IMG/VR virus record: IMGVR_UViG_3300045988_025591
Location: 1-37,955 of that record
Source of the DNA: a virus
Length of the DNA: 37,955 bases
Strand: one strand, 5' to 3'
In this document: positions 1,325 through 37,955 of the stretch, piece after piece
Layout: each line of letters starts with the position of its first letter
How positions within the stretch are numbered: the first letter of the stretch is position 1
Program-made: the position numbers and the translations under genes
The notes under the pieces: generated by a model
The model's database searches: none
What the model saw: the letters and a program-made list of their open reading frames with translations, nothing else
Told to the model about the DNA's origin: nothing

Positions 1325-3904
1325 ATATCAGATGGAACATTAAAGTTTGATACCAAGATTGATACAAGTGGTCTAGAGAATGGAATGAAATCCGTTCATG
1401 TAGTCACAAGTGGAGCTACAAATGCTATTAAAGAAACTTCAAAAGCGATTGATAAGCTAGGCTCTGATGGTTCAAAAGCACCACCAAAAATTAAAGATAA
1501 ACTTAAAGATTTAAACGAAGAGCAAAAGAATACACAAACAGAAACACAAGAAACGGGTTCAAAGTTTGATGTATTTAAGCAGATTGGAAGCAGTGCCTTA
1601 GAATCAATTCAAGGTGGATTTGATGGACTATTAGGAAAGATTCAGAATATTAGTCCGGAAGCTACTGCAATCACAGAAACATTAACAGGATTAGGCGTTG
1701 GAGGTGTCGTTGGTGTTACCGCCTTAGCCGGAGCTATTGGTGGAATGGCATTAGCAATTAAAACAGGTGTTAATCAAGCTATGGAACTAGATGACGCTAT
1801 GGCTAAATTCCAAGCTCAAACAGGTGCTTCAAGCAGTGAAATGAATAAATTTAAAAACATTGCTCGTGATGTTTGGTCTAATAATTTCGGTTCAGATGTT
1901 TCAGATGTTGCCGATATGATGGGCAGAGTCAAGCAACAAATGCAAGGCATAAGTGATGTTGATTTAAAGAATGTTACAGAAGACTTGATTACATTAAGAG
2001 ACGTTTACGGCATGGACGAGAACGAGACTCTTAGAGGTGCGAAACAATTAATGGAACAGTTTGGAATCAGTTCCGAAAAAGCTTTCGACCTTATGGCTAA
2101 AGGTGCTCAGAATGGTTTGGATTATTCCGGTGAATTAGGAGACAATATCGCAGAATATGCCGGTAAATTTGCACAAGCAGGATATTCGGCAGAAGAATAT
2201 TTCCAAACTATGACAAATGGTGTAAAAGGTGGTTCTTATAACCTTGATAAAATGCAAGACGCAGTAAATGAAATTACTACACGAATGTCAGACGGAACTA
2301 TTGAAGGAGCATTAGATAGTTTCAATGATAAGACAAAAGAAGTTTTTCAAGCATATAAAGAAGGTGGAGCAACACAAAAAGATGTGCAAGACGCAATCGT
2401 CCAAGATATTAAAGAAACAACAAATCAACAAGAAGCGTTAAATAAAGCAAGTATTGCATTTGGCACAATGGGAGAAGATTTCAACCTTAAGTTTATTACA
2501 TCCTTATCATCTGTAGGTGATGAATATAACAATGTAGCTGGAACAATGGATAAAGTTAAAGAAATCGCAAATGGTGGCTTAAAGAACGCTTTAAGCGGTT
2601 TAGGACGTGCGTTTCTTGATTCATTCACCCCAATAGGTGAAGCAATTACTCCTATACTTGCAGGAATTGTAGGACTTATAACAGTAGCTATACAAGGTAT
2701 TCAACAAGGATTTGCAAAGATTGGTGATGTAATTTCAAGTGTATTAAGTAAGATTGATACAAGTGGAATTACAGAATTGACAAGTCAAGTTTCTAAAGTA
2801 TTAGCTCCTGCGTTTAAAGAAGTTAAAAAAGCTATTGATGAAATGAAATCGGCTCTTGAACCTATTGCAAAAGATATATTAAGCAAGATTATTGAAGTCA
2901 TTCAAAACATTGTGAATCAAGCACAAAAGATTATTACCGTAGTAGGACCACCGATATTTTCTGTTTTAAAGAAAATCATTTCAACAGTTTCGGAATTTAT
3001 GCCTTTAATCACATCTATATTGACTATTGTCGGAAGTGTTGTAAGTGGAGTCATTTCATTTATAAATATGGTAGTCACATATACCGGAACGGCAATTGCA
3101 ACGGCAATGGGATTTATCACGCCTATCGTTCAAATCATTTCTACGATTGTAGCAAATATTTGGTCGCTTATCTTAACAGTATTAACAAATATATGGAGTA
3201 AGATTAGTGAAGTTGTAACGGCAATCATTGGATTCGTAAGCAATTTATTTAAGACGGTTACGGATATCATAAACAATATTTGGAGTAAGATTCAAGATAC
3301 AATGAACAGAGTTGGAGATAAAGTAAAAGGTGTTATTGATAATATCAATAAATATTTCAATAATATCAAATCTACGGTTTCAGATGTATTTAATGGAATT
3401 TGGACCAAGATTCAAGGCGTAATGGATAAGGTAGGAAATAAGGTATCCGGAGTGTTAGAAGGAATTAAAAACTCATGGGATGGATTAAAAGCATTTACAA
3501 GTGGTGTATTTAGTGGAATTGAAAGTGCTTGTAACAGTTTAGTTTCTAGTGTCAAAGGTTTCGTAAATGGAGTTATAGGTGGAATTAATGGTGCAATCAG
3601 TATCATCAATAAGATTCCGGGAGTTCACATTGGCAAAATTCCAAGACTAGAACGTGGTGGTGTATTGAAACGTGGTCAGATTGGTTTATTGGAAGGTAAC
3701 GGAGCAGAAGCAGTCGTACCATTAGAAAAAAATAAAGCATGGATTCGTGCCGTGGCAAAAGATATGGCTCAAATCATGCCTAGCGTTACAACGAATAACA
3801 ATGGACAGACTATTAACTTCTACAATAAGGCTCAAAGTCCGGATGAAATCGCTAGAATGTTACGTATGCAAGCAAGATATGGATATGGAGGTGTAGTTCA
3901 ATAG
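1325..3904 (+). CDS. tail tape measure protein (ATA start proposed)
   Basis: Largest ORF in the window, with a Gly/Ala-rich membrane-like segment and long helical repeats. ATA at 1325 is the first codon after an in-frame TGA and lies 8 nt after GGAGGTGG (1309-1316). It adds ISDGTLKFDTKIDTSGLENG, a typical tape-measure N-terminus. The track ATG at 1385 has no good SD. Confidence 0.85.
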   Translation: MSDGTLKFDTKIDTSGLENGMKSVHVVTSGATNAIKETSKAIDKLGSDGSKAPPKIKDKLKDLNEEQKNTQTETQETGSKFDVFKQIGSSALESIQGGFDGLLGKIQNISPEATAITETLTGLGVGGVVGVTALAGAIGGMALAIKTGVNQAMELDDAMAKFQAQTGASSSEMNKFKNIARDVWSNNFGSDVSDVADMMGRVKQQMQGISDVDLKNVTEDLITLRDVYGMDENETLRGAKQLMEQFGISSEKAFDLMAKGAQNGLDYSGELGDNIAEYAGKFAQAGYSAEEYFQTMTNGVKGGSYNLDKMQDAVNEITTRMSDGTIEGALDSFNDKTKEVFQAYKEGGATQKDVQDAIVQDIKETTNQQEALNKASIAFGTMGEDFNLKFITSLSSVGDEYNNVAGTMDKVKEIANGGLKNALSGLGRAFLDSFTPIGEAITPILAGIVGLITVAIQGIQQGFAKIGDVISSVLSKIDTSGITELTSQVSKVLAPAFKEVKKAIDEMKSALEPIAKDILSKIIEVIQNIVNQAQKIITVVGPPIFSVLKKIISTVSEFMPLITSILTIVGSVVSGVISFINMVVTYTGTAIATAMGFITPIVQIISTIVANIWSLILTVLTNIWSKISEVVTAIIGFVSNLFKTVTDIINNIWSKIQDTMNRVGDKVKGVIDNINKYFNNIKSTVSDVFNGIWTKIQGVMDKVGNKVSGVLEGIKNSWDGLKAFTSGVFSGIESACNSLVSSVKGFVNGVIGGINGAISIINKIPGVHIGKIPRLERGGVLKRGQIGLLEGNGAEAVVPLEKNKAWIRAVAKDMAQIMPSVTTNNNGQTINFYNKAQSPDEIARMLRMQARYGYGGVVQ

Positions 3905-4770
3905 ATATCAATAAGGTAAGAGTTATCGTCCGTAGGGATGATGGCAAAGAATTTGAAATTGATAACAAAAGATGGAGAATACCGTCTAGTGATGGTTTAG
4001 ATGGGTTCGACTATGTAGCACCTTCATATACAACCCAAGACAATGCATTCGGAAATGGTGCTAGATTAATCGGTTCACGTATTCCAACGAAAGAAAGAAG
4101 CGTGAAAGCTACCTTTAAAGGCTCATTAGAAGAAAAAAGAGAAGAAAGGGAGAAGCTACGGCGCTTCTTCCAATATTCTCATATGTTTGATGTGATAGTT
4201 GAATATATGGGAGAAAAGAAATATTGCAGAGGTCGTTTATATGCGTATAGCTTGCCTACTGTTAACATCTACAAAGATTTAGAGCTTAACTTTACAATAT
4301 TATGCACACAACCTTTATTGCTTTCATTTGATGATTTTGCAAGGAATATTGCAGAAATTGGTGAAGGTTTAGCATTCAATTTTGAAATACCGGAAACAGG
4401 TGTGAACTTTGGAACATTTACATTCGCTAGAGAAATCTATATTGATAATCAAGGCGATACAGAAACATACTGTAAAGCCGTTATTGAAGCGTTTGGAGAG
4501 GTAACAAATCCGAAATTATTCAATAAAGATAAATATATTCGTGTATTAGATACATTGCACAATGGGGATGTATTAGAAATTGATTTAGTTTCTGAGCCTA
4601 TTTCGATAAAAAAGAATGGTGTGAATTGTATCGGTAAAGTTGACAGGACTTCATCATTCAATGATATGACGATTCAGTTAGGTGAGAATATCATAGGATA
4701 TACGGCAGACAGTGGAGACACTAACCTAGCTTGCACTGTTTACTATAATGAAAGGTATTTAGGTTTATAG
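3901..4770 (+). CDS. distal tail protein (Dit) (ATA start)
   Basis: The frame is open from 3901 and has no ATG/GTG/TTG before the track GTG at 4102. The 67 extra codons (IDINKVRVIVRRDDGKEFEIDNKRWRIPSSDGLDGF...) look like a Dit/phage-tail-family N-terminus. GGAGG lies at 3887-3891, 9 nt upstream. The ATA overlaps the tape measure TAG stop (ATAG). Confidence 0.8.
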   Translation: MDINKVRVIVRRDDGKEFEIDNKRWRIPSSDGLDGFDYVAPSYTTQDNAFGNGARLIGSRIPTKERSVKATFKGSLEEKREEREKLRRFFQYSHMFDVIVEYMGEKKYCRGRLYAYSLPTVNIYKDLELNFTILCTQPLLLSFDDFARNIAEIGEGLAFNFEIPETGVNFGTFTFAREIYIDNQGDTETYCKAVIEAFGEVTNPKLFNKDKYIRVLDTLHNGDVLEIDLVSEPISIKKNGVNCIGKVDRTSSFNDMTIQLGENIIGYTADSGDTNLACTVYYNERYLGL

Positions 4771-5797: not shown

Positions 5798-6304
5798 ATA
5801 GAAAAGAACAATGGAGGATTTAAACAAATAACAAGAAGTATGTATTTTCTAGACAAGATGAATGCAATGGGCGGTGTAGCCGTTGCCGTATTAACATACG
5901 TATTAGGTGAGCATTGGTATTTATTTGCGTTCTTCTTATTTGTGAATGTAGTTGATTATATTACAGGGTGCATGAAGTCGGCGATTAATCACAAAATCAA
6001 TAGCAATAAAGGATGGATTGGAGTCCTAAAAAAGCTAGGCTATTGGATTATGATTGTCGTAGCGTTCACATTCAGTGCATTCTTGGTAGAGATTGGAAAA
6101 ATGCTAGGAATTGATTTCCATGTAACCACATTATTAGGATGGTTTGTGTTAGCTTCTTTGTGCATTAATGAAGTGCGTAGCATCATTGAGAACCTTGTAC
6201 AATGTGGATATAGCGTACCTAACGTATTAACTAAAGGACTAGAAGTGGCAGATAAACTCATTAACGAAGAACAAGACAATGACGAATCAAGTACCTTGGA
6301 ATAA
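5798..6304 (+). CDS. holin, phage_holin_4_1 / TcdE-like family (ATA start proposed)
   Basis: Several TM helices and the family motif (VDYITGCMKSAINHKINSNKGWIGVLKKLGYW). AAGGAG lies at 5784-5789 followed by an 8-nt spacer and ATAG. The track GTG at 5789 abuts the SD with zero spacing. Confidence 0.8.
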   Translation: MEKNNGGFKQITRSMYFLDKMNAMGGVAVAVLTYVLGEHWYLFAFFLFVNVVDYITGCMKSAINHKINSNKGWIGVLKKLGYWIMIVVAFTFSAFLVEIGKMLGIDFHVTTLLGWFVLASLCINEVRSIIENLVQCGYSVPNVLTKGLEVADKLINEEQDNDESSTLE

Positions 6305-8915: not shown

Positions 8916-9689
8916 ATAAATTATCAAAGTTTTAAAAATGCCGTATTAGGCAAAGTTTTCGACATTGATGGATATTATGGTGCTCAATGTTGGGATGGAT
9001 TCGCAAAGTATATGATTGATTTAGGGTACAAGGCAATCCACTGTACAACAAGTGGATACGTAAAAGACATTTGGAATAACAGAAAGACAAATGGAATCTT
9101 AAATTATTGCAATGAAGTTACAGTAATGCAAGCCGGAGATATCGCAGTATTCAGAGAAGTAGCAGGATGGACTCCATACTCACACATTGCAATTTTCGAT
9201 TCAGACATTGATGGTAAATTCGGATGGTTTCTAGGTCAAAATCAAGGTGGAAAGCTTGGGTCATTTACATTATGTAAATTACCATACAGTGCTACATTTG
9301 ATACGGCTTTTAGACCTAAATGTCTTGCAAATGCTAAACCAACACAGACGGTTAAACCTAAACCAGTAGTTACTCCAAAAGAAGCAATTGACCAAATCTT
9401 ACATGTTGGAAGTTACGTCACATCTGTTCAAATGAAGATTGGAAATCAAGGATTAAAAAAGATTAATAACGATACTTGTGCCTATTTATCTCAATTAGGT
9501 GGATGGTTTCCAATTTCAATGGTAACAAAGGTCAGATATTCTGATGGATTCAATGATGATGTATTGCACACTACAAATGCAGTGGTATACATTACTAGAA
9601 TTAGAGTTGATGAAGTCAACGTACAAAAGAACCTTGTCAAGATTGGTGGTATTTGGGTAAGTGCTACACCATTAATTGAAGTAGCATAA
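8916..9689 (+). CDS. endolysin, N-terminal CHAP domain plus C-terminal cell-wall-binding region (ATA start)
   Basis: The CHAP catalytic-Cys motif (YYGAQCWDGF) lies upstream of the track ATG at 9012. The frame opens at 8901 after a TAA and has no ATG/GTG/TTG before 9012. ATA at 8916 lies 9 nt after AGGAGG. The His region (YSHIAIFD) and GQNQGG lie downstream. Confidence 0.85.
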   Translation: MNYQSFKNAVLGKVFDIDGYYGAQCWDGFAKYMIDLGYKAIHCTTSGYVKDIWNNRKTNGILNYCNEVTVMQAGDIAVFREVAGWTPYSHIAIFDSDIDGKFGWFLGQNQGGKLGSFTLCKLPYSATFDTAFRPKCLANAKPTQTVKPKPVVTPKEAIDQILHVGSYVTSVQMKIGNQGLKKINNDTCAYLSQLGGWFPISMVTKVRYSDGFNDDVLHTTNAVVYITRIRVDEVNVQKNLVKIGGIWVSATPLIEVA

Positions 9690-14552: not shown

Positions 14553-14705
14553 ATGATGACAGGTCATGGAGGTGAAACAATACTAGATAAGAGAATTTTC
14601 GAAGCTCTAGGCTTACTTGAAAAGAAAGGCTATGAGCTATCTGAATTCGATAAAGGGTATATCGCTTGTATCCTTAACGAATCCAAAAAAGAAGAAAAGA
14701 GGTGA
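14553..14705 (+). CDS. hypothetical 50-aa protein (weak call)
   Basis: An open frame with a tandem ATG ATG start but no SD. The stop overlaps the next gene region. Confidence 0.3.
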   Translation: MMTGHGGETILDKRIFEALGLLEKKGYELSEFDKGYIACILNESKKEEKR

Positions 14706-18486: not shown

Positions 18487-19218
18487 ATAGCAGAACTAAA
18501 GAAAAGCCTACAAATAGGTTATACACACGTTAACAATGAGATATTTCACGATAGAGAATTATCCTATAAAGCAAAAGGCTTGTTTTGCCAAATGTTAAGC
18601 CTTCCGGATAATTGGGACTTTAAGGAAAACAGTATTAAAGCATTAGCTACAGATGGAATATCAAGTGTTCGTTCCGGTTTAAAAGAATTAATGAATAAAG
18701 GATATTTAATTCGTGAACCTATTAGAGATGGTAATTTAATTGTTGATTGGCAATATACATTAATAGATAATCCTCGGAATTTAGAAAATCTAAAAATAGA
18801 AAATCTAAAAATAGAAAATCTAAAATTAGAAAATCTAAACCCTATTAAATTAAATAATAATTCAACTAAAAATGAATTAAATAAAAATAATATTAATGTA
18901 TGTACGCACAAACACAAATACGGTGAATATCAACACGTTCTATTATCAGATAAAGAACACACACACCTATTAGATTTATATGGTAACTCATTGGATGAGC
19001 ATATAAAGATATTAGATGAGTACATTGAAACGAGTGGAAAAAAATACAAGAACCATTCACTAGTGATTCAAAAATGGGTACATGATGAATGGATGAAAAG
19101 AAATAAGAATAGTCCTACAAAGCTTGATTCTAAATTCTATGCGGAAGAAAGCAATCAATCGTATGCAGATGTACAGAAAGAAATGGAACGATTGAGAAGG
19201 GAAATATTAAGAGCATAA
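18487..19218 (+). CDS. replisome organizer / DnaD-like replication initiation protein (ATA start proposed)
   Basis: The N-terminal winged-helix pattern (YTHVNNEIFHDRELSYKAKGLFCQMLSLPDNWDF) is typical of phage replisome organizers, and the gene contains iterons. AGGAGG at 18473-18478 is followed by an 8-nt spacer and ATAGCA. The track GTG at 18478 lies inside the SD. Confidence 0.65.
   Translation: MAELKKSLQIGYTHVNNEIFHDRELSYKAKGLFCQMLSLPDNWDFKENSIKALATDGISSVRSGLKELMNKGYLIREPIRDGNLIVDWQYTLIDNPRNLENLKIENLKIENLKLENLNPIKLNNNSTKNELNKNNINVCTHKHKYGEYQHVLLSDKEHTHLLDLYGNSLDEHIKILDEYIETSGKKYKNHSLVIQKWVHDEWMKRNKNSPTKLDSKFYAEESNQSYADVQKEMERLRREILRA
18782..18841 (+). repeat. four tandem 15-bp iterons (putative origin) inside the organizer gene
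   Basis: TAGAAAATCTAAAAA occurs twice, followed by TAGAAAATCTAAAAT and TAGAAAATCTAAACC. An extremely AT-rich stretch follows, to about 18900. Confidence 0.7.
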
Positions 19219-22641: not shown

Positions 22642-23229
22642 ATAAGAGAACATTGGACAGAAGAAAAGATAAAATCACAAATCAAAGAAATGATTATTGA
22701 TACAGGATTAAACAGAATGCCTACAAGAAGAGAAGTTGAAGAATACTATGGAGATTCAAAATTAGGAAATGCAATTTCAAAAAGAAGTTTATGGTTTCCT
22801 TTAGCGAAAGAATTACATTTAGAATCAAAACCAAGTAGAACAAATTTCGGCAGAAAATATGAATTGAAATTTATGGATTATATAGAGAACAAAGGATATG
22901 AAGCTATTAAAATGTCTACAAAACATCCGTATGATATTTTAGTGAATGAATGTGTAAAAGTTGATGTGAAAGCGAGCACCTTATACAGAGGTAGGAATGG
23001 GAGCTTTTACACATTCAATTTAGAAAAAACATATCCAACTTGCGACATATATATCTTGTACATACTTAGTGATGATGAAAAAGTTTTAGATGTATTGGTA
23101 ATTCCTAGTAAAGATGTTATAGGTATAAGTCAAATAAGTGTAGGAGAGCATTCTAGCAAATATTACAAATATTCAAACAAATGGAGTTATATAAAACGAT
23201 ATTGTGATTTTATCAAATCATTAAATTAA
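22642..23229 (+). CDS. PD-(D/E)XK nuclease-fold protein (ATA start)
   Basis: The C-terminal YDIL...VKVDVKAS is a PD-(D/E)XK-like motif. The frame opens at 22639 after a TAA, and the only start-like codon before the track ATG at 22690 is ATA at 22642, 6 nt after GGAGG. This adds REHWTEEKIKSQIKE. Confidence 0.6.
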   Translation: MREHWTEEKIKSQIKEMIIDTGLNRMPTRREVEEYYGDSKLGNAISKRSLWFPLAKELHLESKPSRTNFGRKYELKFMDYIENKGYEAIKMSTKHPYDILVNECVKVDVKASTLYRGRNGSFYTFNLEKTYPTCDIYILYILSDDEKVLDVLVIPSKDVIGISQISVGEHSSKYYKYSNKWSYIKRYCDFIKSLN

Positions 23230-23245
23230 TACGGAGGTGAATTTA

Positions 23246-23440
23246 ATAGAAATGAATCATGAAGAAAGGATTAAAGAGTTAATTTCTAAAAACAATAAAC
23301 TAGGAAGGACAAATATTGAGCTTAATCAGATTATAAAAGAAAGAAATGCAACAATTCATAATCAAGCGCATGAAATAAAGAAATTAAAATATAAAGTTGG
23401 CGAATTAGAAGATAGATTGTATAAGGTATACAGTTCATGA
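23246..23440 (+). CDS. hypothetical coiled-coil protein (start uncertain: ATA 23246, GTG 23237 or ATG 23252)
   Basis: GGAGG lies at 23233-23237. ATA is 8 nt downstream, the GTG overlaps the SD, and the ATG is 14 nt away. Confidence 0.45.
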   Translation: MEMNHEERIKELISKNNKLGRTNIELNQIIKERNATIHNQAHEIKKLKYKVGELEDRLYKVYSS

Positions 23441-23763
23441 GCACATATGAGGATATTAAGAGACACTTCTTGTGTGAATGTCAATCATACACATACTACG
23501 AACAAAAGATAGCGGAGCTACAAAGGGATGAAGCTATTTATCCTTTAAAAGCCGAGCTATTCTTAGCTCATGCAGATTATGCAAGAAGAATGAACTACGT
23601 AAAAGATAAATTAAGCCAACTTGATGATACTACTCGAACAATGATTGAGTATAGATATATAAAGGGATTCAGTGCAGAAAAGACATCTAATATTGTAGGT
23701 TATGCAAGAGAAGAGATTCCAAGAAAAATAAATAAGAATTTAAAGAAAGTGCTCACAATGTGA
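23437..23763 (+). CDS. late-gene activator candidate, sigma-70 region-4-like (RinA/ArpU-type position)
   Basis: The C-terminal RTMIEYRYIKGFSAEKTSNIVGYAREEIPRKINKNLKKV is region-4-like. It is the last early gene before the packaging region, and its start overlaps the upstream stop (ATGA). Confidence 0.6.
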   Translation: MSTYEDIKRHFLCECQSYTYYEQKIAELQRDEAIYPLKAELFLAHADYARRMNYVKDKLSQLDDTTRTMIEYRYIKGFSAEKTSNIVGYAREEIPRKINKNLKKVLTM

Positions 23764-23772
23764 GCATTTTTT
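23748..23772 (+). terminator. rho-independent terminator
   Basis: GTGCTCAC-aat-GTGAGCAT forms a 7-9 bp stem followed by T6. The stem includes the stop codon of the upstream gene. Confidence 0.75.
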
Positions 23773-23774
23773 CA

Positions 23775-23783
23775 TGCGATAAT
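23775..23783 (+). promoter_or_regulatory. extended -10 element (TGCGATAAT) in front of the tRNA
   Basis: TG-N-GATAAT ends at 23783, and base 1 of the tRNA (A at 23790) is 7 nt downstream. I saw no good -35. Confidence 0.4.
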
Positions 23784-23789
23784 TGTTTT

Positions 23790-23865
23790 AGCAGGATAGA
23801 GCAGTAGTAGCTCACTAGTCTTATTAGCTAGAGGTCGAAGAGTGCAATTCCTTCTCCTGCAACCA
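23790..23865 (+). tRNA. initiator-like tRNA with anticodon UAU (reads AUA)
   Basis: A 76-nt cloverleaf. Acceptor stem AGCAGGA/UCCUGCA has 6 bp plus an unpaired A1 x A72, with U8 present. D stem GAGC/GCUC gives A11:U24. Anticodon stem CUAGU/GCUAG closes the loop CUUAUUA. Variable loop is AGGUC. T arm GAAG(A)G/CCUUC has the loop UGCAAUU. The discriminator is A and CCA is encoded. Confidence 0.8.
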
Positions 23866-23947
23866 TGATTACAAAGTCTATCAGTAAGTCCTTCTCAAAT
23901 CAGATATTAAATACCAACAATGGCATGCCGTTAGGCTTTGATATATT

Positions 23948-23972
23948 ACCGAGCGTTTGTCTCGGTTCTTTT
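23948..23972 (+). terminator. terminator downstream of the tRNA
   Basis: ACCGAG-cgtttgt-CTCGGT followed by TCTTTT. Confidence 0.6.
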
Positions 23973-23990
23973 AATAATAAGGAGGAGAAT

Positions 23991-24236
23991 ATGGATTCAA
24001 GAAAATTTCATGATTTAGCAATCAACGCAGTATTTCAAGTAAACCAAAATATTGAAGTAAGTGAAATGTTCGTTGTATGGATGTGTAAGACGCTACAGAA
24101 CAATAAAGCATTAATTGGTGTACATCATTCACCCAATTATTATGAAGTAACGTATAACGGCGATAAAAAGGAATTATACGTTGATGAATACATCAAGAAT
24201 ACAAATACTTGTCTAAATGCAAATGACGCTCTATGA
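23991..24236 (+). CDS. hypothetical protein
   Basis: ATG follows AAGGAGGAG. The track start at 23865 would overlap the tRNA and cross its terminator. The C-terminal pattern is YYEVTYNGDKKELYVDEY. Confidence 0.6.
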   Translation: MDSRKFHDLAINAVFQVNQNIEVSEMFVVWMCKTLQNNKALIGVHHSPNYYEVTYNGDKKELYVDEYIKNTNTCLNANDAL

Positions 24237-24256: not shown

Positions 24257-24730
24257 ATGGAAATTATTAGATTAAAAATTAATGACATTACACCTTACGA
24301 AAAGAATGCAAAGATTCATACTGAAGCGCAAATTGAACAAATTAAGAAATCTATTCAAGAATTTGGTATGAATGACCCAATCGCAGTATGGGGAGAAAAA
24401 AATACAATCGTTGAAGGTCATGGAAGATTAGAAGCCTTAAAACAATTAGGCGATACAGAAGTTGACTGTATCAGATTAGACCATTTGACAGATGAAGAAA
24501 GAAAAGCCTATACACTTGCACATAATAAAATCAATATGAATACAGGGTTTGATATTGATTTGTTAGATGAAGAATTAGACAGTATTGAAGATATTGATAT
24601 GGAAGATTTTGGATTTGAAAACGTAGAAAATATTGATTTGAATAGTTTTTTTGAAGATTCAAATTCGACAAGTGAAAAAGAACCGAAAAAAATTCAGTGT
24701 CCTCATTGTGGTGAATGGTTTGAACAATGA
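24257..24730 (+). CDS. ParB-like nuclease-domain protein with a C-terminal zinc ribbon
   Basis: ATG follows AAGGGGGA. The sequence DITPYEKNAKIHTEAQIEQIKKSIQEFGMNDPIAVW...IVEGHGRLEA is a ParB/Sulfiredoxin-type N-terminal domain. CPHCGEW lies at the C-terminus. Confidence 0.75.
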   Translation: MEIIRLKINDITPYEKNAKIHTEAQIEQIKKSIQEFGMNDPIAVWGEKNTIVEGHGRLEALKQLGDTEVDCIRLDHLTDEERKAYTLAHNKINMNTGFDIDLLDEELDSIEDIDMEDFGFENVENIDLNSFFEDSNSTSEKEPKKIQCPHCGEWFEQ

Positions 24731-24953
24731 AACTGTTTTTAGCAGGATGTCTTTCGGGGGGGCACAAAACATAGTGCGTAAGAATTATGAAGTTGTATCT
24801 AGCAGGATGACAAGCGCAACTAAAGACGGCTATCCCTAAAGTAGGAGAAGATATGGAAATGTATTTAGCGTCTGTTTCAAGACTTGAAACAGATTTAAAA
24901 GCAGAGAGTGGAGGATTAATGAAAGCATATCTAGCAGAGAGTGGAGGATTAAT
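24727..24953 (+). repeat. four tandem, decaying copies of the dpdA 5' end (period about 60-66 nt)
   Basis: ATGAAACTGTTTTTAGCAGGATG starts at 24727 (MKLFLAGCLSGGHKT, stop). ATGAAGTTGTATCTAGCAGGATGA starts at 24787 (MKLYLAG, stop). ATGGAAATGTATTTAGCG starts at 24853. ATGAAAGCATATCTAGCAGAGAG starts at 24919. A 21-bp direct repeat AGCAGAGAGTGGAGGATTAAT occurs at 24900-24920 and 24933-24953. Confidence 0.6.
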
Positions 24954-25632
24954 CTTCAATGACGCTAACATATTGCAATCATTCTATTATGTAGATGACT
25001 TCACTCGAAATATAATCATCCCAAATTGTAAAGATTTCTTATTAGATAGTGGAGCATTTACATTTATACAGAATGCGAAACACGTTGATTGGGATGAATA
25101 CGTAGAAAAATATGCAAAATTTGTTAGAGAAAACAAGATTCAGAAATATTTCGAATTAGATATTGATTCAATCGTTGGATTAAAAGAAGTCGAACGATTA
25201 AGAGCAAAGTTAGAAAGACTAGTTGGTTGGCAGTGTATTCCTGTATGGCACAGAAGCAGAGGAATGGACTACTTTATAAAGCAATGTGAAGAATACCCTT
25301 ATATAGCTATTGGTGGAATCGCAATCAAAGAAATAAAACAAAATGAATATCCTATCTTCAAAGTGTTAATAAAAGAAGCACATAAGAGAAATACAAAGGT
25401 GCATGGATTAGGATTCACACAATTAAAGAAACTGAAAATGTATAACTTTGATTCGGTAGATAGTTCATCATGGGTTAGTGGAAATAGATTCGGTGCTATA
25501 TATTGGTTTAACGGAGAAACTTTAGAAAAGATAAATAAACCAAAAGGGAAACGAGTGAAGAGTTCACAAACTGCTATAAACAACTTTATACAGTGGAAGA
25601 AATTCGCTAATTATGTAGAAAGGACATATTAA
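24853..25632 (+). CDS. dpdA: DpdA-like 7-deazaguanine DNA transglycosylase (TGT family)
   Basis: LLDSGAFTF parallels the TGT catalytic DSGGFQ motif. VHGLGFT and FDSVDSSSW parallel the second catalytic region. The neighbouring genes are queuosine-precursor genes. An alternative start is the ATG at 24919 (MKAYLAESGGL). Confidence 0.75.
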   Translation: MEMYLASVSRLETDLKAESGGLMKAYLAESGGLIFNDANILQSFYYVDDFTRNIIIPNCKDFLLDSGAFTFIQNAKHVDWDEYVEKYAKFVRENKIQKYFELDIDSIVGLKEVERLRAKLERLVGWQCIPVWHRSRGMDYFIKQCEEYPYIAIGGIAIKEIKQNEYPIFKVLIKEAHKRNTKVHGLGFTQLKKLKMYNFDSVDSSSWVSGNRFGAIYWFNGETLEKINKPKGKRVKSSQTAINNFIQWKKFANYVERTY

Positions 25633-25935
25633 ATGATTGAAAACAAAGAAAAAGTAAGATATATCGAAATGTATCCAAAGGCAAGATGTTTCTGCCCTAT
25701 TGGTAAAGCATGGTACACAAATAGATTTAAAGTATCAGTATTTCCTAGAGATTGTTATTTCGATTATCTAGATGTAGAAAAGTTTATTAAAGAAGAAATT
25801 GAAGGAAAGAGCTTAACAATTGAGGGAGCTTGCAAGAAACTATATGACTATTTAAAAAAAGATGTTGAAGATATTCAAGTAGAATCACACGTAAATGACG
25901 CAACTCATTTTCCTGTTAAGGTATTAGTTGATTAA
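25633..25935 (+). CDS. QueF / QueF-like T-fold protein (tentative)
   Basis: The segment CFCPIGKAWYTNRFKVSVFP has the same Cys-Pro...Pro spacing as the QueF segment LCPKTGQPDFATIYISYIP. The full QueF motif is absent and the protein is only 100 aa, which is more like QueF-L. Confidence 0.5.
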   Translation: MIENKEKVRYIEMYPKARCFCPIGKAWYTNRFKVSVFPRDCYFDYLDVEKFIKEEIEGKSLTIEGACKKLYDYLKKDVEDIQVESHVNDATHFPVKVLVD

Positions 25936-25948
25936 GGAGGAAGTATTA

Positions 25949-26407
25949 ATAAAGAATCAAACAATTAAGACAATTTCAATGAATGCAATCGTATGTGCAA
26001 TGTATGTTGCGTTATGTGTAGCATTAAATCCAATTAGCTTTGGAGCATTACAATTTAGAGTAGCAACTCTATTGTTACCATTAGGATTTCAAGATAAGAG
26101 ATTTGCAAATGGACTTATTCTAGGAGTAATCTTAGCAAACTTAACAAGTTCACTAGGATTAATTGATGTATTAGTTGGATTTACAATTCAATTTACAATG
26201 TATTATTTATTCCCATATTTTATTAAGAATAAATGGATTCATGGAATTGCTTATGCAGTATTAAGTGGAACTCTAGTAGCATTAGAATTATTATCAGTAT
26301 TACACATTCCATTCTTATATTCATTTATTACAGTAGGATTAAGTGGATTGATTTTATATGAAGTAGGGAATGTATTATGTACAAGATTATTGAAATACAT
26401 TGATTAA
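25949..26407 (+). CDS. queT: QueT-family queuosine-precursor transporter (ATA start proposed)
   Basis: A multi-TM protein with the QueT-like N-terminus (AIVCAMYVALCVALNPISFGALQFRVATLLLPL). AAGGAGG at 25934-25940 is followed by an 8-nt spacer and ATA. The track TTG at 25928 precedes that SD, and the ATG at 25979 has no SD. Confidence 0.7.
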   Translation: MKNQTIKTISMNAIVCAMYVALCVALNPISFGALQFRVATLLLPLGFQDKRFANGLILGVILANLTSSLGLIDVLVGFTIQFTMYYLFPYFIKNKWIHGIAYAVLSGTLVALELLSVLHIPFLYSFITVGLSGLILYEVGNVLCTRLLKYID

Positions 26408-30955: not shown

Positions 30956-31564
30956 ATAGCTATTGAATATTTAGACAAGAGTGGATTGACTCTATTAATT
31001 GGTAAAATTAAATCTGCATTAAGTGGAAAAGTTGATGCGGTAAGTGGCAAAGGCTTATCGACAAATGACTACACAACCGCAGAAAAAAGCAAATTAAGTG
31101 GTATTGCAAGTGGCGCTCAAGCTAACGTAATTGAGTCTGTAAAAGTAAACGGAACGGCATTAGTGCCAAGTTCAAAAGCCGTTGACGTTTCAGTACCGAC
31201 AAAGGTATCGCAATTAACAAATGACAGTGGTTTCCAAAATGCTACACAAGTAAATACAACGATTGTCGGAAAAGGATATCAAACGCAATCTCAAGTACAA
31301 TCGTTGATTAATTCGGCAGTAGGAAACATTACATCCATTAGATATGAAAAGGTAAGTTCATTACCTGCTACAGGTTCAAACGGTGTAATTTATTTGGTTG
31401 CGCATACACATGGAACGCAAGATATTTATGATGAATACATTTGGATTTCAGACAGTAAGGCATTTGAAAAGATTGGTAGTACAGACATTGATTTATCGGC
31501 ATATGTTAAGAAATCAGAATTAACTGCGATTACAACAAACGAATTAAATACAATGTGGGGTTAG
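30956..31564 (+). CDS. tail fibre protein (KGLSTNDYT..EK.KL repeat type) (ATA start)
   Basis: AGGAGG at 30943-30948 is followed by a 7-nt spacer and ATAGCT. It adds IAIEYLDKSG to the track TTG start at 30986. The GKGLSTNDYTTAEKSKLSGIASGAQANV motif is typical of phage fibres. Confidence 0.6.
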   Translation: MAIEYLDKSGLTLLIGKIKSALSGKVDAVSGKGLSTNDYTTAEKSKLSGIASGAQANVIESVKVNGTALVPSSKAVDVSVPTKVSQLTNDSGFQNATQVNTTIVGKGYQTQSQVQSLINSAVGNITSIRYEKVSSLPATGSNGVIYLVAHTHGTQDIYDEYIWISDSKAFEKIGSTDIDLSAYVKKSELTAITTNELNTMWG

Positions 31565-36503: not shown

Positions 36504-36919
36504 TAGGATTCTTTGAAGATTCAATCACACTTGTGAACCACTACTATGATACATTGACAAGAGAAGATAGGTTTCAAGCTTCTATTCTTGATAAATGTAT
36601 GTGGAGACAATCAACGGTTAGAACTGCAAACGGTAATATTCTGAGCATAGCCACATCCACAAATATTACCATTCTATATCGTGAGGGATATGTTGAACCT
36701 TACGCATATGCAAAACTTTCAAACGATGAGAAACAAAAACACTTCACATTAAATACAGATAAAACCGATTTCGTATTCTTTGGAGAAGTAGAAGAAGATT
36801 TATCTAGTATTAAAGCAATAAATGAAGCTAAAAAGAAATACAAATGGACAACGATTCAAAGTGTTACAGATTGTACGAATGTCGATATGTTGAAACATTG
36901 GGAGGTTGTCGGTCAATAG
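36500..36919 (+). CDS. head closure / head-tail adaptor (assigned by position)
   Basis: The ATG at 36500 forms an ATGA overlap with the upstream stop. The track ATG at 36488 is an alternative. Confidence 0.5.
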   Translation: MIGFFEDSITLVNHYYDTLTREDRFQASILDKCMWRQSTVRTANGNILSIATSTNITILYREGYVEPYAYAKLSNDEKQKHFTLNTDKTDFVFFGEVEEDLSSIKAINEAKKKYKWTTIQSVTDCTNVDMLKHWEVVGQ

Positions 36920-37278
36920 GAATAAAAGTCAAACTTGATGTTGAATCAATTCCCCAAATTAAGCAATCAAGAGGACTTGAAGAACGTGGACGAGTGCAAC
37001 AAATGATTGACTCTGAAGTCATTAGGCTTATGACCCCCTATACGCCTAGAGATACCGGAGCATTGATTAACTCGGCTACAAGAAACACTCAAATCGGTAG
37101 CGGATTAGTAAAGCAAGGTGGACCAAGTGCTCCATATGCAAGACGTTGGTATTACAACAAAGAGGGTGCTCATTTCGTTTGTGGTAAAACAGACCACTGG
37201 TTTGAAAAAGCTATGCGAAATGGTGGAGCAGAAACAATCTTGAAGAAAGCACAACAAATGATAGGAGACGGAGAATGA
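36916..37278 (+). CDS. HK97 gp10-like / minor-capsid-family head-tail joining protein (ATA start)
   Basis: GGAGG at 36901-36905 is followed by a 10-nt spacer and ATAGGA, which overlaps the upstream TAG. The track ATG at 36844 would overlap the upstream gene by 76 nt. The motif is PYTPRDTGALINSAT. Confidence 0.65.
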   Translation: MGIKVKLDVESIPQIKQSRGLEERGRVQQMIDSEVIRLMTPYTPRDTGALINSATRNTQIGSGLVKQGGPSAPYARRWYYNKEGAHFVCGKTDHWFEKAMRNGGAETILKKAQQMIGDGE

Positions 37279-37694
37279 CAGTATCAAAAGCATTGATTCA
37301 ATGGCTATATGGATATGGAAATATACAGATAGATGAACGTATCGAAACGGATGTATTAGCGCAACAAGCTATTTCTTATGCATTGTATAAAGAACCCAAT
37401 GCAATTGTAGATACATACATTGACGGCTCTCAAATGCGTACTGAATACTACACGTTTCTAGCACGTAGGAATACACAAATTGAATCAGAAAGACAAGACA
37501 ACAATGTTTTTCTAGAAGAATTAGAAAATTGGATTGATGAAAAGAATTTAAACGGAGAATTGCCACAACTAGACGGAAACAGATATTGCGAGGATGTTTC
37601 CGTTTCAAGTGGTTTATATCTATACACAAATGAGGATAGTCAAGCGGTATATGCGTTAACTATTCAAATCAAATACAGAAAGGAGCTTAATTAA
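37275..37694 (+). CDS. tail completion / tail terminator candidate (assigned by position)
   Basis: ATGA overlap after GGAGACGGAG. This is the last gene before the major tail protein. Confidence 0.5.
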   Translation: MTVSKALIQWLYGYGNIQIDERIETDVLAQQAISYALYKEPNAIVDTYIDGSQMRTEYYTFLARRNTQIESERQDNNVFLEELENWIDEKNLNGELPQLDGNRYCEDVSVSSGLYLYTNEDSQAVYALTIQIKYRKELN

Positions 37695-37955
37695 TAGCAA
37701 CTACAGGAACTGAAGTTAATACAGGACAGACGGTCAAAAAGTATATGATTGGATTGTTCTTGGAAATGGGAACAGGTTATAAGCGAATTAAGAAATCTAC
37801 AACTTTAGATATTTCATTTAACAGTGAAACTGAAACGTATGATTTTATCGCAGATAAGAATCCGACGGAATCATTAAAGAGTTATTCACCTCAGATTTCA
37901 CAAGATTTAACAATGATTAAAGGTGAAGATGACTTTGAATATATTTACGAACAGA
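37694..37955 (+). CDS. major tail protein, 5' part (continues at 1..364) (ATA start)
   Basis: AAGGAG at 37680-37685 is followed by an 8-nt spacer and ATAGCA, with a TAATA overlap on the upstream stop. The frame opens at 37691 after a TAA, and the first canonical start is 17 codons downstream (ATG at 37745) with no SD. Confidence 0.75.
   Translation, partial: MATTGTEVNTGQTVKKYMIGLFLEMGTGYKRIKKSTTLDISFNSETETYDFIADKNPTESLKSYSPQISQDLTMIKGEDDFEYIYEQ
37837..37955. repeat. 119-bp terminal duplicate of bases 1-119 (circular closure of the contig)
   Basis: The two segments are identical when read directly in the sequence. Confidence 0.95.

Follow-up and report, generated by a model that had tools for sequence, protein, structure and literature searches.

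The virus record IMGVR_UViG_3300045988_025591 was analysed over its whole length of 37,955 nucleotides (nt), which is referred to as the window in the following and represents a temperate siphovirus-like genome of about 38 kb with a G+C content of about 33%. The tRNA gene located at positions 23790 to 23865 can with good confidence be regarded as specifying a phage-borne initiator tRNA, the anticodon of which has been changed from CAU to UAU and which would serve phage genes starting with ATA. A dedicated AUA-reading initiator had been proposed in a first-pass annotation of this DNA, and the proposal gains support from the likeness of the tRNA to tRNA-fMet, from determinants that are invariant in its relatives, from the reality of the predicted ATA starts and from the co-occurrence of the tRNA with such starts in other phages. 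The present analysis adds to it an A at position -1 of every predicted ATA start of the window, a putative AGG start in a phage with a CCU tRNA, and putative A-GTC and A-GTT starts in phages with GAC or AAC tRNAs.

Structure of the tRNA gene

The following elements were assigned to the tRNA gene:

23790..23865, plus strand: tRNA with initiator-type body and anticodon UAU, a 76-nt cloverleaf
23790-23796 with 23855-23861, plus strand: acceptor stem, A1xA72 unpaired
23799-23813, plus strand: D arm
23815-23831, plus strand: anticodon arm, with the loop CTTATTA at 23820-23826, the anticodon at 23822-23824 and U37 at 23825
23837-23854, plus strand: T arm with one bulged base
23862, plus strand: A73, followed by the encoded CCA at 23863-23865

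The cloverleaf and its encoded CCA end are found in the sequence as the first-pass annotation had drawn them, and the cloverleaf with base 1 unpaired is the fold of minimum free energy. A run of the general tRNA covariance model, which had been suggested along with that annotation, matched the Rfam family RF00005 to positions 23790-23862 of the plus strand with 43.2 bits against a gathering score of 29 (E value 4.4e-6), and this was the sole Rfam family match in the window. The folding-energy z-score was -0.95, a type of score that is usually uninformative for tRNAs. ARAGORN called no tRNA in the window, which is attributable to the bulged T stem and to G55 rather than to the absence of a tRNA; the same program labelled relatives with canonical arms as tRNA-Ile(tat). 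The relative at locus L092 reached an Rfam tRNA score of 56.5 bits, and the strongly diverged copy at locus L095 remained below the Rfam threshold, yet was called by ARAGORN.

The initiator hallmarks recognized earlier are all present in the sequence, namely the unpaired A1xA72, the pairs G2:C71 and C3:G70, A73 with the encoded CCA, the D stem GAGC/GCUC that yields A11:U24, and the variable loop AGGUC. A purine11:pyrimidine24 pair has been named as a recognition element of the formyltransferase Fmt (PMC9976931). The anticodon loop reads CUUAUUA (C32-U33-U34-A35-U36-U37-A38), and UAU replaces the CAU of bacterial initiators in all members of the tRNA family. The anticodon stem contains A29:U41, G30:C40 and U31.G39, so that the reported absence of the G:C pairs characteristic of initiators holds for 29:41 and 31:39 of the window copy but not for G30:C40, which is present here and in each of the 13 family variants. 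The T arm GAAGAG-UGCAAUU-CCUUC comprises five pairs, a one-base bulge and G55, and the D loop is AGUAGUA. The deviations that had been listed, i.e. U37, the bulged T stem, G55 and a D loop without GG, were thereby confirmed. An ochre suppressor with a shifted anticodon (UUA) was considered and rejected, as the 31:39 pair, C:G in the case of L038, sets the register of the 7-nt loop.

Covariation and ancestry of the tRNA family

Relatives were gathered by means of exact and degenerate DNA patterns in IMG/VR, a metagenome scan and homology of the portal protein, and 13 distinct family sequences entered the covariation alignment. The family is composed of five or six tRNA body lineages. The window-type lineage occurs on about 36 contigs and has the T-stem bulge sequences GAAYGG or GAAGAG with five pairs kept, and its sister lineage (L041, L050) has fully canonical D and T arms. 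Further lineages are characterized by C1xA72 (L043, L053, L092), by G1xA72 in two separate cases (the L098 group and the L099/L106 group), and by A1xA72 in combination with different D, variable and T arms in the strongly diverged L095, a prophage of Amedibacillus sp. YH-ame6.

In the alignment, 94.5% of the cells are paired and both sides have changed in 13 of the 21 pairs, a result that was matched by none of 500 shuffles and approached by no slid register. Compensatory changes occur in all four stems across the lineages, as illustrated by the anticodon-stem variants CUAGU/GCUAG, UCGGU/GCCGA, UUGGU/GCCAA, CCAGU/GCUGG and UCAGU/GCUGA; the pair 29:41 is G:C in many relatives, and 31:39 is U.G, with the exception of L038. 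Position 1:72 is unpaired in all 13 sequences (AxA, CxA or GxA), while the pairs 2 to 7 are always standard. Accordingly, position 1 is occupied by A, C or G and never by U, which would pair with A72. The features G2:C71, C3:G70, A73, A11:U24, G30:C40 and the loop CUUAUUA are invariant throughout.

The D loop and the T loop (23803-23809 and 23843-23849 in the window) switch jointly, with AGUGGUG and UUCAAAU in L041 and L050 as compared with AGUAGUA and UGCAAAU in the window type. This co-change could be a compensating swap of the elbow contact G18:U55 to A18:G55.

These covariation data bear on the notion that the gene is a decaying tRNA pseudogene, an integration-site remnant or an RNA-processing signal, with an initiator likeness that is inherited and functionless. 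Decay would agree with the rejection of the window copy by ARAGORN, with its bulged T stem, its G55 and its D loop lacking GG, and with a folding-energy z-score of only -0.95. It is nevertheless highly improbable in view of the compensatory changes in all four stems, the fully canonical arms in L041, L050 and L092, and the preservation, across about 36 contigs, of a bulged arm that keeps five pairs in each of its three bulge variants. A remnant of phage integration (attP) was rejected separately, since 11 kb separate the gene from that of the integrase and since the element, unlike attP fragments, has retained a complete cloverleaf with CCA and shows covariation.

With respect to ancestry, the nearest matches of the tRNA in phage databases are genes annotated as tRNA-Met. 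One of them, the tRNA-Met of mycobacteriophage Phabba, likewise has a 1x72 mismatch and the anticodon arm CUAGC-CUCAUAA-GCUAG. The top match of a canonical family member is annotated as tRNA-Met in all 5,426 E. coli genomes, and the E. coli match that was examined lies in the triple initiator locus metZWV (identity of 77.6% over 74 nt, E value 2e-6). Two scans of 185,579 species-representative genomes detected no member of the tRNA family, the three matches obtained being tRNA fragments or chance hits.

A CAU tRNA was found in portal relatives of higher G+C content (47-49% identity, G+C 0.41-0.56; L154-L191, e.g. L156:13700 and L111:7652-7725). It is located at another genomic site, between the minor-capsid and scaffold genes, and combines G1xA72 or G1xG72 with G2:C71, C3:G70, the same D stem, the full set G29-31:C39-41, an unusual loop UUCAUGC (G37, C38) and no encoded CCA. 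This tRNA looks like a phage-borne initiator tRNA. Phage-borne initiator-type tRNAs are thus a trait of the wider phage group, the low-GC branch of which carries the UAU version. In the higher-GC relatives with the G37 tRNA, C at position -1 of ATG starts amounts to 25% as compared with 13%, a weak trend.

ATA start codons in the window

Each stop-to-stop open reading frame (ORF) of the window was scanned for a Shine-Dalgarno (SD) match and then for any codon located 4-10 nt further on. The resulting counts were 23-27 for ATG, 14-15 for ATA as the second commonest codon, 3-5 for ATT and 3 for GTG; all ATT cases sit one codon past an ATG. The many ATA-initiated phage genes assumed in the first-pass annotation thus correspond to 13 firm and two probable cases, which have GGAGG-type SD sequences at normal spacing and an in-frame stop codon 0-15 codons upstream. 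They lack a usable canonical start, nearby GTG or TTG codons being situated inside or before the SD sequence. About a quarter of the phage genes begin with ATA, as follows:

1325..3904, plus strand: tape measure; SD sequence AAGGAGGT, upstream TGA abutting the ATA, first ATG 20 codons downstream
3901..4770, plus strand: distal tail protein (Dit); AATA, first canonical start 67 codons downstream and inside the Dit profile region
5798..6304, plus strand: holin-like protein; AATA, SD sequence AAGGAG with 8 nt spacing
8916..9689, plus strand: endolysin; AATA, first ATG 32 codons downstream, profile match from residue 2
14580..14705, plus strand: small early ORF; GGAGGT and AATA, a possible ATA start only
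18487..19218, plus strand: replication initiator/DnaD-like protein; AATA, SD sequence AGGAGGT with 7 nt spacing
22642..23229, plus strand: conserved phage gene phrog_28936; AATA
23246..23440, plus strand: small gene; AATA
25949..26407, plus strand: QueT-type transporter; AATA, ATG at the exact position in the relative L002
28113..29516, plus strand: portal protein; AATA, first canonical start TTG 28206, which would drop 31 conserved residues
29513..30322, plus strand: minor head protein; AATA, ATA start supported by the minor head profile
30956..31564, plus strand: gene in scaffold position; AATA, ATG at the exact position in the relatives L039 and L023
35135..36004, plus strand: major head protein; AATA, residues 2-288 aligned to profile positions 2-294 of 297
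36916..37278, plus strand: minor head protein; probable AATA, an in-frame ATG 24 codons upstream lying inside the preceding gene and having no SD sequence
37694..37955, plus strand: ORF running off the window end; AATA, SD sequence AAGGAG

Homology extends into the regions that only an ATA start would include. The first 31 residues of the portal protein align with the conserved N-termini of full-length portals, the Dit profile match begins at residue 20, far ahead of any canonical start codon, and the minor head profile match begins at residue 3. The N-terminus of the tape measure protein aligns with those of the tape measure proteins of L095 (ATA) and L181 (AGG), and in relatives of the gene at 23246 the spacer between the SD sequence and the start varies in about 14 ways with AATAGAA fixed. 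Taken on the sequence evidence, these comparisons show the predicted ATA starts to be real. ATG starts are used by the genes for the integrase, the repressor and the terminase small subunit (terS), and the start of the large terminase gene appears to be TTG.

In public gene calls, the portal proteins are short, with 436 amino acids (TTG), 365 amino acids and 408 amino acids (Amedibacillus) as compared with 467 amino acids from the ATA (P0001, P0003, P0034). The called-gene tables of relatives moreover contain gaps ahead of capsid and tail genes. Both the truncated portal calls, by 31 to about 100 residues, and the gaps are explicable by gene finders that disallow ATA.

Within the genes of the window, ATA is the rarest isoleucine codon, with 108 of 658 isoleucine codons or 12.7 per 1000 codons, which makes codon supply a poor reason for carrying the tRNA.

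The base before the start codon and U37

An A precedes all 15 ATA starts of the window and 19 of the 36 ATG starts (Fisher p = 0.0008). Across 89 unique ATA-start contexts from all lineages, position -1 is occupied by A in 81, by G in seven and by T in one case, and several of the contexts without A represent ATG or GTG starts located one codon upstream. The effect of this position was measured by Höllerer and Jeschek (PMC10018350), who tested 45,258 mRNA variants with tRNA-fMet carrying A37, A37G or A37U. In that study, complementarity between position 37 and mRNA position -1 raised initiation, with a smaller effect of G.U, and A37U favoured A at position -1.

The predicted start signal is AAUA, which would be read by UAUU through four-base pairing. 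Such a pairing of UAUU with AAUA makes sense only for an initiator in the ribosomal P site. As U37 pairs with the invariant A at position -1, it is better read as a part of the mechanism than as a deviation from the initiator pattern.

Position -2 was also recorded; it is A in one of 15 ATA starts as compared with 27 of 36 ATG starts in the window, and over the 89 family contexts it is G in 33, T in 32, A in 16 and C in eight. This bias is partly due to the upstream TGA stop codon, which often abuts the ATA.

Distribution of the tRNA and of ATA starts among related phages

The locus L092, the portal of which is 61% identical to that of the window, contains a C1xA72 tRNA between a sigma-like regulator gene and terS, along with six AATA starts. 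An A1xA72 tRNA is located at the same place in L095, the Amedibacillus prophage (portal 55% identical), and this locus has four AATA starts, including those of the portal and tape measure genes. The two G1xA72 lineages have three to four ATA starts per locus. In the low-GC relatives L109 and L110, which are devoid of the tRNA, the portal gene starts with ATG and no credible ATA start was found, the ATA matches being spurious.

A check of the relatives for the tRNA against ATA starts, as proposed in the first-pass annotation, agreed with the expected association. Within the portal-anchored set, 205 AATA and 371 ATG starts were counted in the 38 tRNA-bearing loci, as compared with 48 AATA and 432 ATG starts in the 48 loci lacking the tRNA. 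From the latter 48 AATA starts, 32 belong to six close relatives whose loci do not reach the tRNA site, and in four of them the tRNA is found at another place on the same contig, which is permuted. Removal of the six loci reduced the count for tRNA-less loci to about 16 AATA against 400 ATG. The tRNA is accompanied by predicted AATA starts in diverged phages, and both are missing from related phages.

The same comparison addresses the view that the gene specifies an elongator tRNA-Ile(UAU), which would decode AUA in an AT-rich phage or replace a scarce or attacked host tRNA-Ile2, the ATA starts being read weakly by the host initiator. This would be in line with the ARAGORN label tRNA-Ile(tat) of canonical relatives and with the anticodon UAU (23822-23824), which is also that of tRNA-Ile in some bacteria according to the references given in PMC9976931. 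Elongator-type tRNAs from aquatic metagenomes (G1:C72, GCUC-type D arm) share the loop CUUAUUA, and this speaks for the elongator and weighs against the initiator; since they share it, U37 combined with UAU is not exclusive to initiator bodies and may have a further role. The loci concerned are situated on metagenome contigs without SD-led genes:

L052, L054, L056, L059, L061, L062, L064, L065, L069: elongator-bodied CUUAUUA loci (aquatic and other metagenomes)
L071, L073, L075, L076, L079, L082, L083, L089: further elongator-bodied CUUAUUA metagenome loci

A low-GC phage, L032, likewise has a UAU tRNA with A37 and a paired position 1:72. An elongator is distinctly unlikely, however, as the 1x72 mismatch is kept in 13 of 13 sequences while base 1 varies between A, C and G, as the D stem has A11:U24 instead of Y11:R24, and as the body is nearest to tRNA-fMet. 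The identity pairs of the isoleucyl-tRNA synthetase (IleRS) of E. coli are C4:G69, U12:A23 and C29:G41. They are absent from the phage tRNA, which has A4:U69, G12:C23 and A29:U41, and U37 replaces t6A37. Internal ATA, the rarest isoleucine codon, is not heavily used, and a near-cognate AUA start would scarcely suffice for structural proteins made in large amounts, such as the major head protein. Finally, AATA starts vanish in relatives without the tRNA, and L032, with its true elongator-type UAU tRNA (U1:A72, A37), has no ATA start at all.

Initiator-like tRNAs with other anticodons

Three portal relatives contain the same kind of tRNA body with other anticodons. The tRNA of L181 (IMG/VR 3300021399_000523), located at L181:6392-6465, has the anticodon CCU in the loop UUCCUUG and the mismatch C1xU72. 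The tape measure gene of this phage (L181:11476-13611) has no canonical start before codon 22, and an AGG codon that is preceded by A is found 9 nt after GGAGG, at the position homologous to the ATA. The N-termini align as RQR-SDGSLLFDTKLDTSGL in L181, I-SDGTLKFDTKIDTSGL in the window and I-ADGTLLFETKLDSKGL in L095. As predicted from this reading frame, the tape measure gene of L181 can start only at AGG.

A broader scan of IMG/VR for an initiator-type D arm in combination with U33 and U37 yielded at least 74 distinct cloverleaves, at least 69 of them with a 1x72 mismatch. Among the matches listed, the anticodons of the mismatched tRNAs were CAU in 41 cases, GAC in 14, CCU in five, AAC in three, and CAG, UAC, GCU, ACU and CGU in one case each:

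L193-L306: loci of the broader scan, e.g. L193:2001 (minus strand), L208:5513 (minus strand), L215:2768 (plus strand), L238:3868 (minus strand), L291:5128 (minus strand)

Phages with GAC or AAC tRNAs have SD sequences followed by A-GTC or A-GTT starts directly after upstream stop codons. These loci show the predicted start codon to co-vary with the anticodon of the initiator-like tRNA. Classic experiments demonstrated that anticodon mutants of tRNA-fMet initiate at the matching codon. Modern versions of these experiments are available (10.1101/2021.05.25.445580, PMC11744186). It appears likely on the whole that phages run a natural orthogonal initiation system, which would consist of reprogrammed initiator tRNAs (UAU, CCU, GAC, AAC and others), a four-base start read with the help of U37, and essential genes for the lytic cycle, the virion structure and lysis that depend on it, perhaps with formyl-isoleucine as the first residue.

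Another explanation starts from the anticodon loop as a target of host defence. The tRNA would then be mainly a defensive initiator, a loop variant that escapes host nucleases or toxins or permits the shut-off of host initiation, with the ATA starts as a secondary effect and U34.G wobble possibly serving AUG starts as well. Anticodon-loop changes are common in phage tRNAs and are thought to serve the evasion of tRNases, and toxins of the VapC type cleave tRNA-fMet (PMC10264068). At least 41 distinct phage initiator-like tRNAs keep CAU and yet have U37, and in the higher-GC relatives CAU is combined with changes at positions 37 and 38. As the main function, defence is unlikely; it accounts neither for the use of ATA in place of ATG in 13-15 genes, always with A at position -1, nor for the correspondence of the start codon to the anticodon (AGG with CCU, GTC or GTT with GAC or AAC), and the analysis identified neither a nuclease nor a toxin. 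A defensive role is compatible with initiation at ATA and may coexist with it.

Genomic context of the tRNA gene

The tRNA gene is located between a regulator gene, the position of which is occupied by a Sigma70_r4_2-like gene in relatives, and the late region of the phage. The organization of the window and of the tRNA neighbourhood is as follows:

1-9.7 kb: tail and lysis genes
11.5-13.9 kb: integrase and divergent repressor genes
up to 23.4 kb: early and replication genes, then a small regulator gene, then packaging and head genes
23437-23763, plus strand: regulator gene with a weak match to a transcriptional regulator
23750..23772, plus strand: hairpin and T run closing the regulator gene and separating it from the tRNA
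23775..23783, plus strand: putative extended -10 promoter TG-C-GATAAT (TGCGATAAT), as read from the sequence
23948..23973, plus strand: terminator-like hairpin and T run, 82 nt 3' of the tRNA and ahead of the SD sequence and ATG of the DUF6275 gene

The putative extended -10 ends 6 nt before base 1 of the tRNA; most relatives have TG-T-AATAAT, and GATAAT is located 5 nt upstream of the tRNA in the Amedibacillus prophage. A consensus promoter scan did not list the candidate at 23775..23783. From this arrangement, the tRNA may constitute its own short transcription unit between two terminator-like hairpins, with a start at or near A1.

Downstream of the tRNA, the ORF list places the start of the ORF at 23865-24236 at an ATG overlapping the CCA end. 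The real start of this DUF6275 gene is the ATG at 23991, after AAGGAGGAG and the terminator-like hairpin. The adjoining module at 24257-26407 begins with a gene for a ParB-like nuclease-domain protein (24257-24730) and includes a queuine tRNA-ribosyltransferase-like (TGT-like) protein at 24853-25632 (phrog_887, probably DpdA), a 100-residue protein of unknown function and the ATA-started QueT-type transporter (25949-26407). The module has the appearance of a cassette for 7-deazaguanine modification of DNA that has been inserted between the tRNA and terS, and it is missing from L092 and L095. A functional link between the tRNA and the adjoining TGT-like and QueT genes was rejected, as the tRNA has no G34 and the module resembles DpdA-type DNA modification. 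The sequences of L001 and L005 diverge completely about 25 nt past the tRNA CCA, after CAAAGTCTATTGGTTA, which marks a recombination boundary directly behind the tRNA.

A blastn search with the 900-nt neighbourhood of the tRNA against GenBank phages gave one unrelated weak match only. The host assignment is suggested solely by the related Amedibacillus prophage found through portal homology.

A model of initiation at AUA and the points to be set against it

As an initiator, the tRNA would enter the ribosomal P site and pair with AUA starts located behind ordinary SD sequences, and U37 would add a fourth pair with the invariant A at mRNA position -1, so that UAUU reads AAUA. The 1x72 mismatch, G2:C71, C3:G70, A73 and A11:U24 would make it a substrate of the host formyltransferase and a poor substrate of EF-Tu, and G30:C40, together with G29:C41 in many relatives, would form the core of the P-site signature. 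The acceptor end has all known determinants of the formyltransferase, and the agreement of the predicted start codons with the anticodon lends indirect support to the use of a formylated tRNA in the P site with IF2. As the anticodon is fully cognate to the codon, such AUA starts should escape rejection by IF3. Roughly one gene in four would depend on the tRNA, among them those for the major head, portal, scaffold, minor head, tape measure and Dit proteins, the holin, the endolysin and the replication initiator, so that virion production and lysis, the genes for which start with ATA, would be tied to it.

As regards the amino acid, charging with isoleucine by IleRS seems somewhat more likely than charging with methionine, a slight preference that arises from the dependence of the methionyl-tRNA synthetase (MetRS) on C34. 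IleRS reads A35, U36, A38 and A73, and t6A37 is in addition a strong determinant of the bacterial enzyme (PMC9976931); the latter determinant is lost, since position 37 is U. As to its purpose, the system could act as a lock at the level of translation, by which the synthesis of virion and lysis proteins would be made conditional on a tRNA supplied by the phage. Alternatively, it could free the phage from a host initiator that is in short supply or attacked (PMC10264068).

Several observations weigh against the proposed initiator and its mechanism. The window copy of the tRNA might be impaired by the bulge in its T stem, by G55 and by the lack of GG in the D loop. Its anticodon stem lacks the full set of three G:C pairs (29:41, 30:40, 31:39), and the purine/pyrimidine orientation of 31:39 is opposite to that of natural au/GC/gu initiators; G30 is reported to be the most crucial of the three, and initiators of the au/GC/gu type do exist in nature (PMC5389676). 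Neither the IleRS nor the MetRS identity set is complete on the tRNA (PMC9976931). Some members of the family were retrieved with DNA patterns in which parts of the sequence were prescribed, A72/A73 by one of the patterns; L092, L095 and the portal-anchored set were obtained without any tRNA pattern and display the same invariant features. The co-occurrence counts do not represent independent events, because the tRNA-bearing phages are interrelated. Finally, a simple lock on late genes is complicated by the replication initiator, which uses ATA and would require the tRNA early as well.

Relation to known systems and significance

The phage tRNA shares with the bacterial initiator tRNA-fMet (metZWV and metY of E. 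coli) the unpaired 1x72, G2:C71, C3:G70, A73 and A11:U24 as well as the D arm GAGCAG..GCUC, the variable loop AGGUC, the 3' end GCAACCA and G30:C40. It differs by UAU instead of CAU, by U37 instead of A37, by being phage-encoded, by the bulged T stem and G55 of the window copy, and by one (window) or two (relatives) of the three G:C pairs with U.G at 31:39. Laboratory initiators with mutated anticodons (amber, tRNA-fMet(GAC/GAA/GAU/AAC), orthogonal systems) likewise combine an initiator body with a changed anticodon and a matching non-AUG start. In these systems the amino acid follows the new anticodon, and a phage made dependent on an anticodon-mutant initiator is a published biocontainment design (10.1101/2021.05.25.445580; 10.1101/2024.07.29.605542; PMC11744186). 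Whereas such initiators are engineered, the phage tRNA is natural, carried by the phage and, as predicted, coupled to many essential genes, with U37 matched to the A at position -1. The pairing between positions 37 and -1 in E. coli is a modest tuning of A37 with U (PMC10018350), whereas the phage combines U37 with A in 15 of 15 cases in the window and 81 of 89 in the family.

Animal mitochondria also use AUA as a regular start that is decoded by the initiating tRNA, but this is a single CAU tRNA-Met with f5C34 that carries methionine (PMC5048346), whereas the phage tRNA has a UAU anticodon, is separate from the host initiator and coexists with AUG starts. The elongator tRNA-Ile(UAU) of Mycoplasma mobile and lactic acid bacteria, as referred to in PMC9976931 (references 44 and 45 therein), has the same AUA-cognate UAU; it has a paired 1:72, A37 (t6A), an elongator D stem and the IleRS pairs, none of which is found in the phage tRNA.

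In stop-codon recoding, a phage tRNA likewise alters the reading of a codon class, mostly in late, structural and lysis genes, which suggests a translational gate to the lytic program. It was reportedly described by Ivanova in 2014 and Borges in 2022 for phages with suppressor tRNAs, and it acts at termination and elongation, TAG or TGA being read as sense codons, whereas the UAU tRNA of the phage would act at initiation. The literature searched, which omits most subscription journals, yielded no account of a phage initiator that occurs in nature and has an anticodon other than CAU; it did yield engineered non-AUG initiators, mitochondrial AUA initiation and ideas on the evasion of tRNA attack by phages. 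In the textbook view, bacteria use one initiator tRNA with the anticodon CAU, and non-AUG starts are read by the same tRNA through mispairing. To our knowledge, a natural second initiator with a different anticodon and a dedicated start has so far been a laboratory construct only.

The phages concerned are abundant in human-gut metagenomes, and the closest portal cluster comprises 1,406 member sequences. The use of ATA explains the systematic mis-annotation of portal, capsid and tail genes in these phages. If the interpretation is correct, viral genes would be controlled at a new level, that of initiation, in addition to stop-codon recoding, and the phage tRNA would represent a natural case of quadruplet start recognition, in which position 37 pairs with position -1. 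Proteins of these phages may then begin with isoleucine, valine or arginine instead of methionine, and the tRNAs would provide ready-made orthogonal pairs of initiator and start codon for synthetic biology and phage biocontainment.

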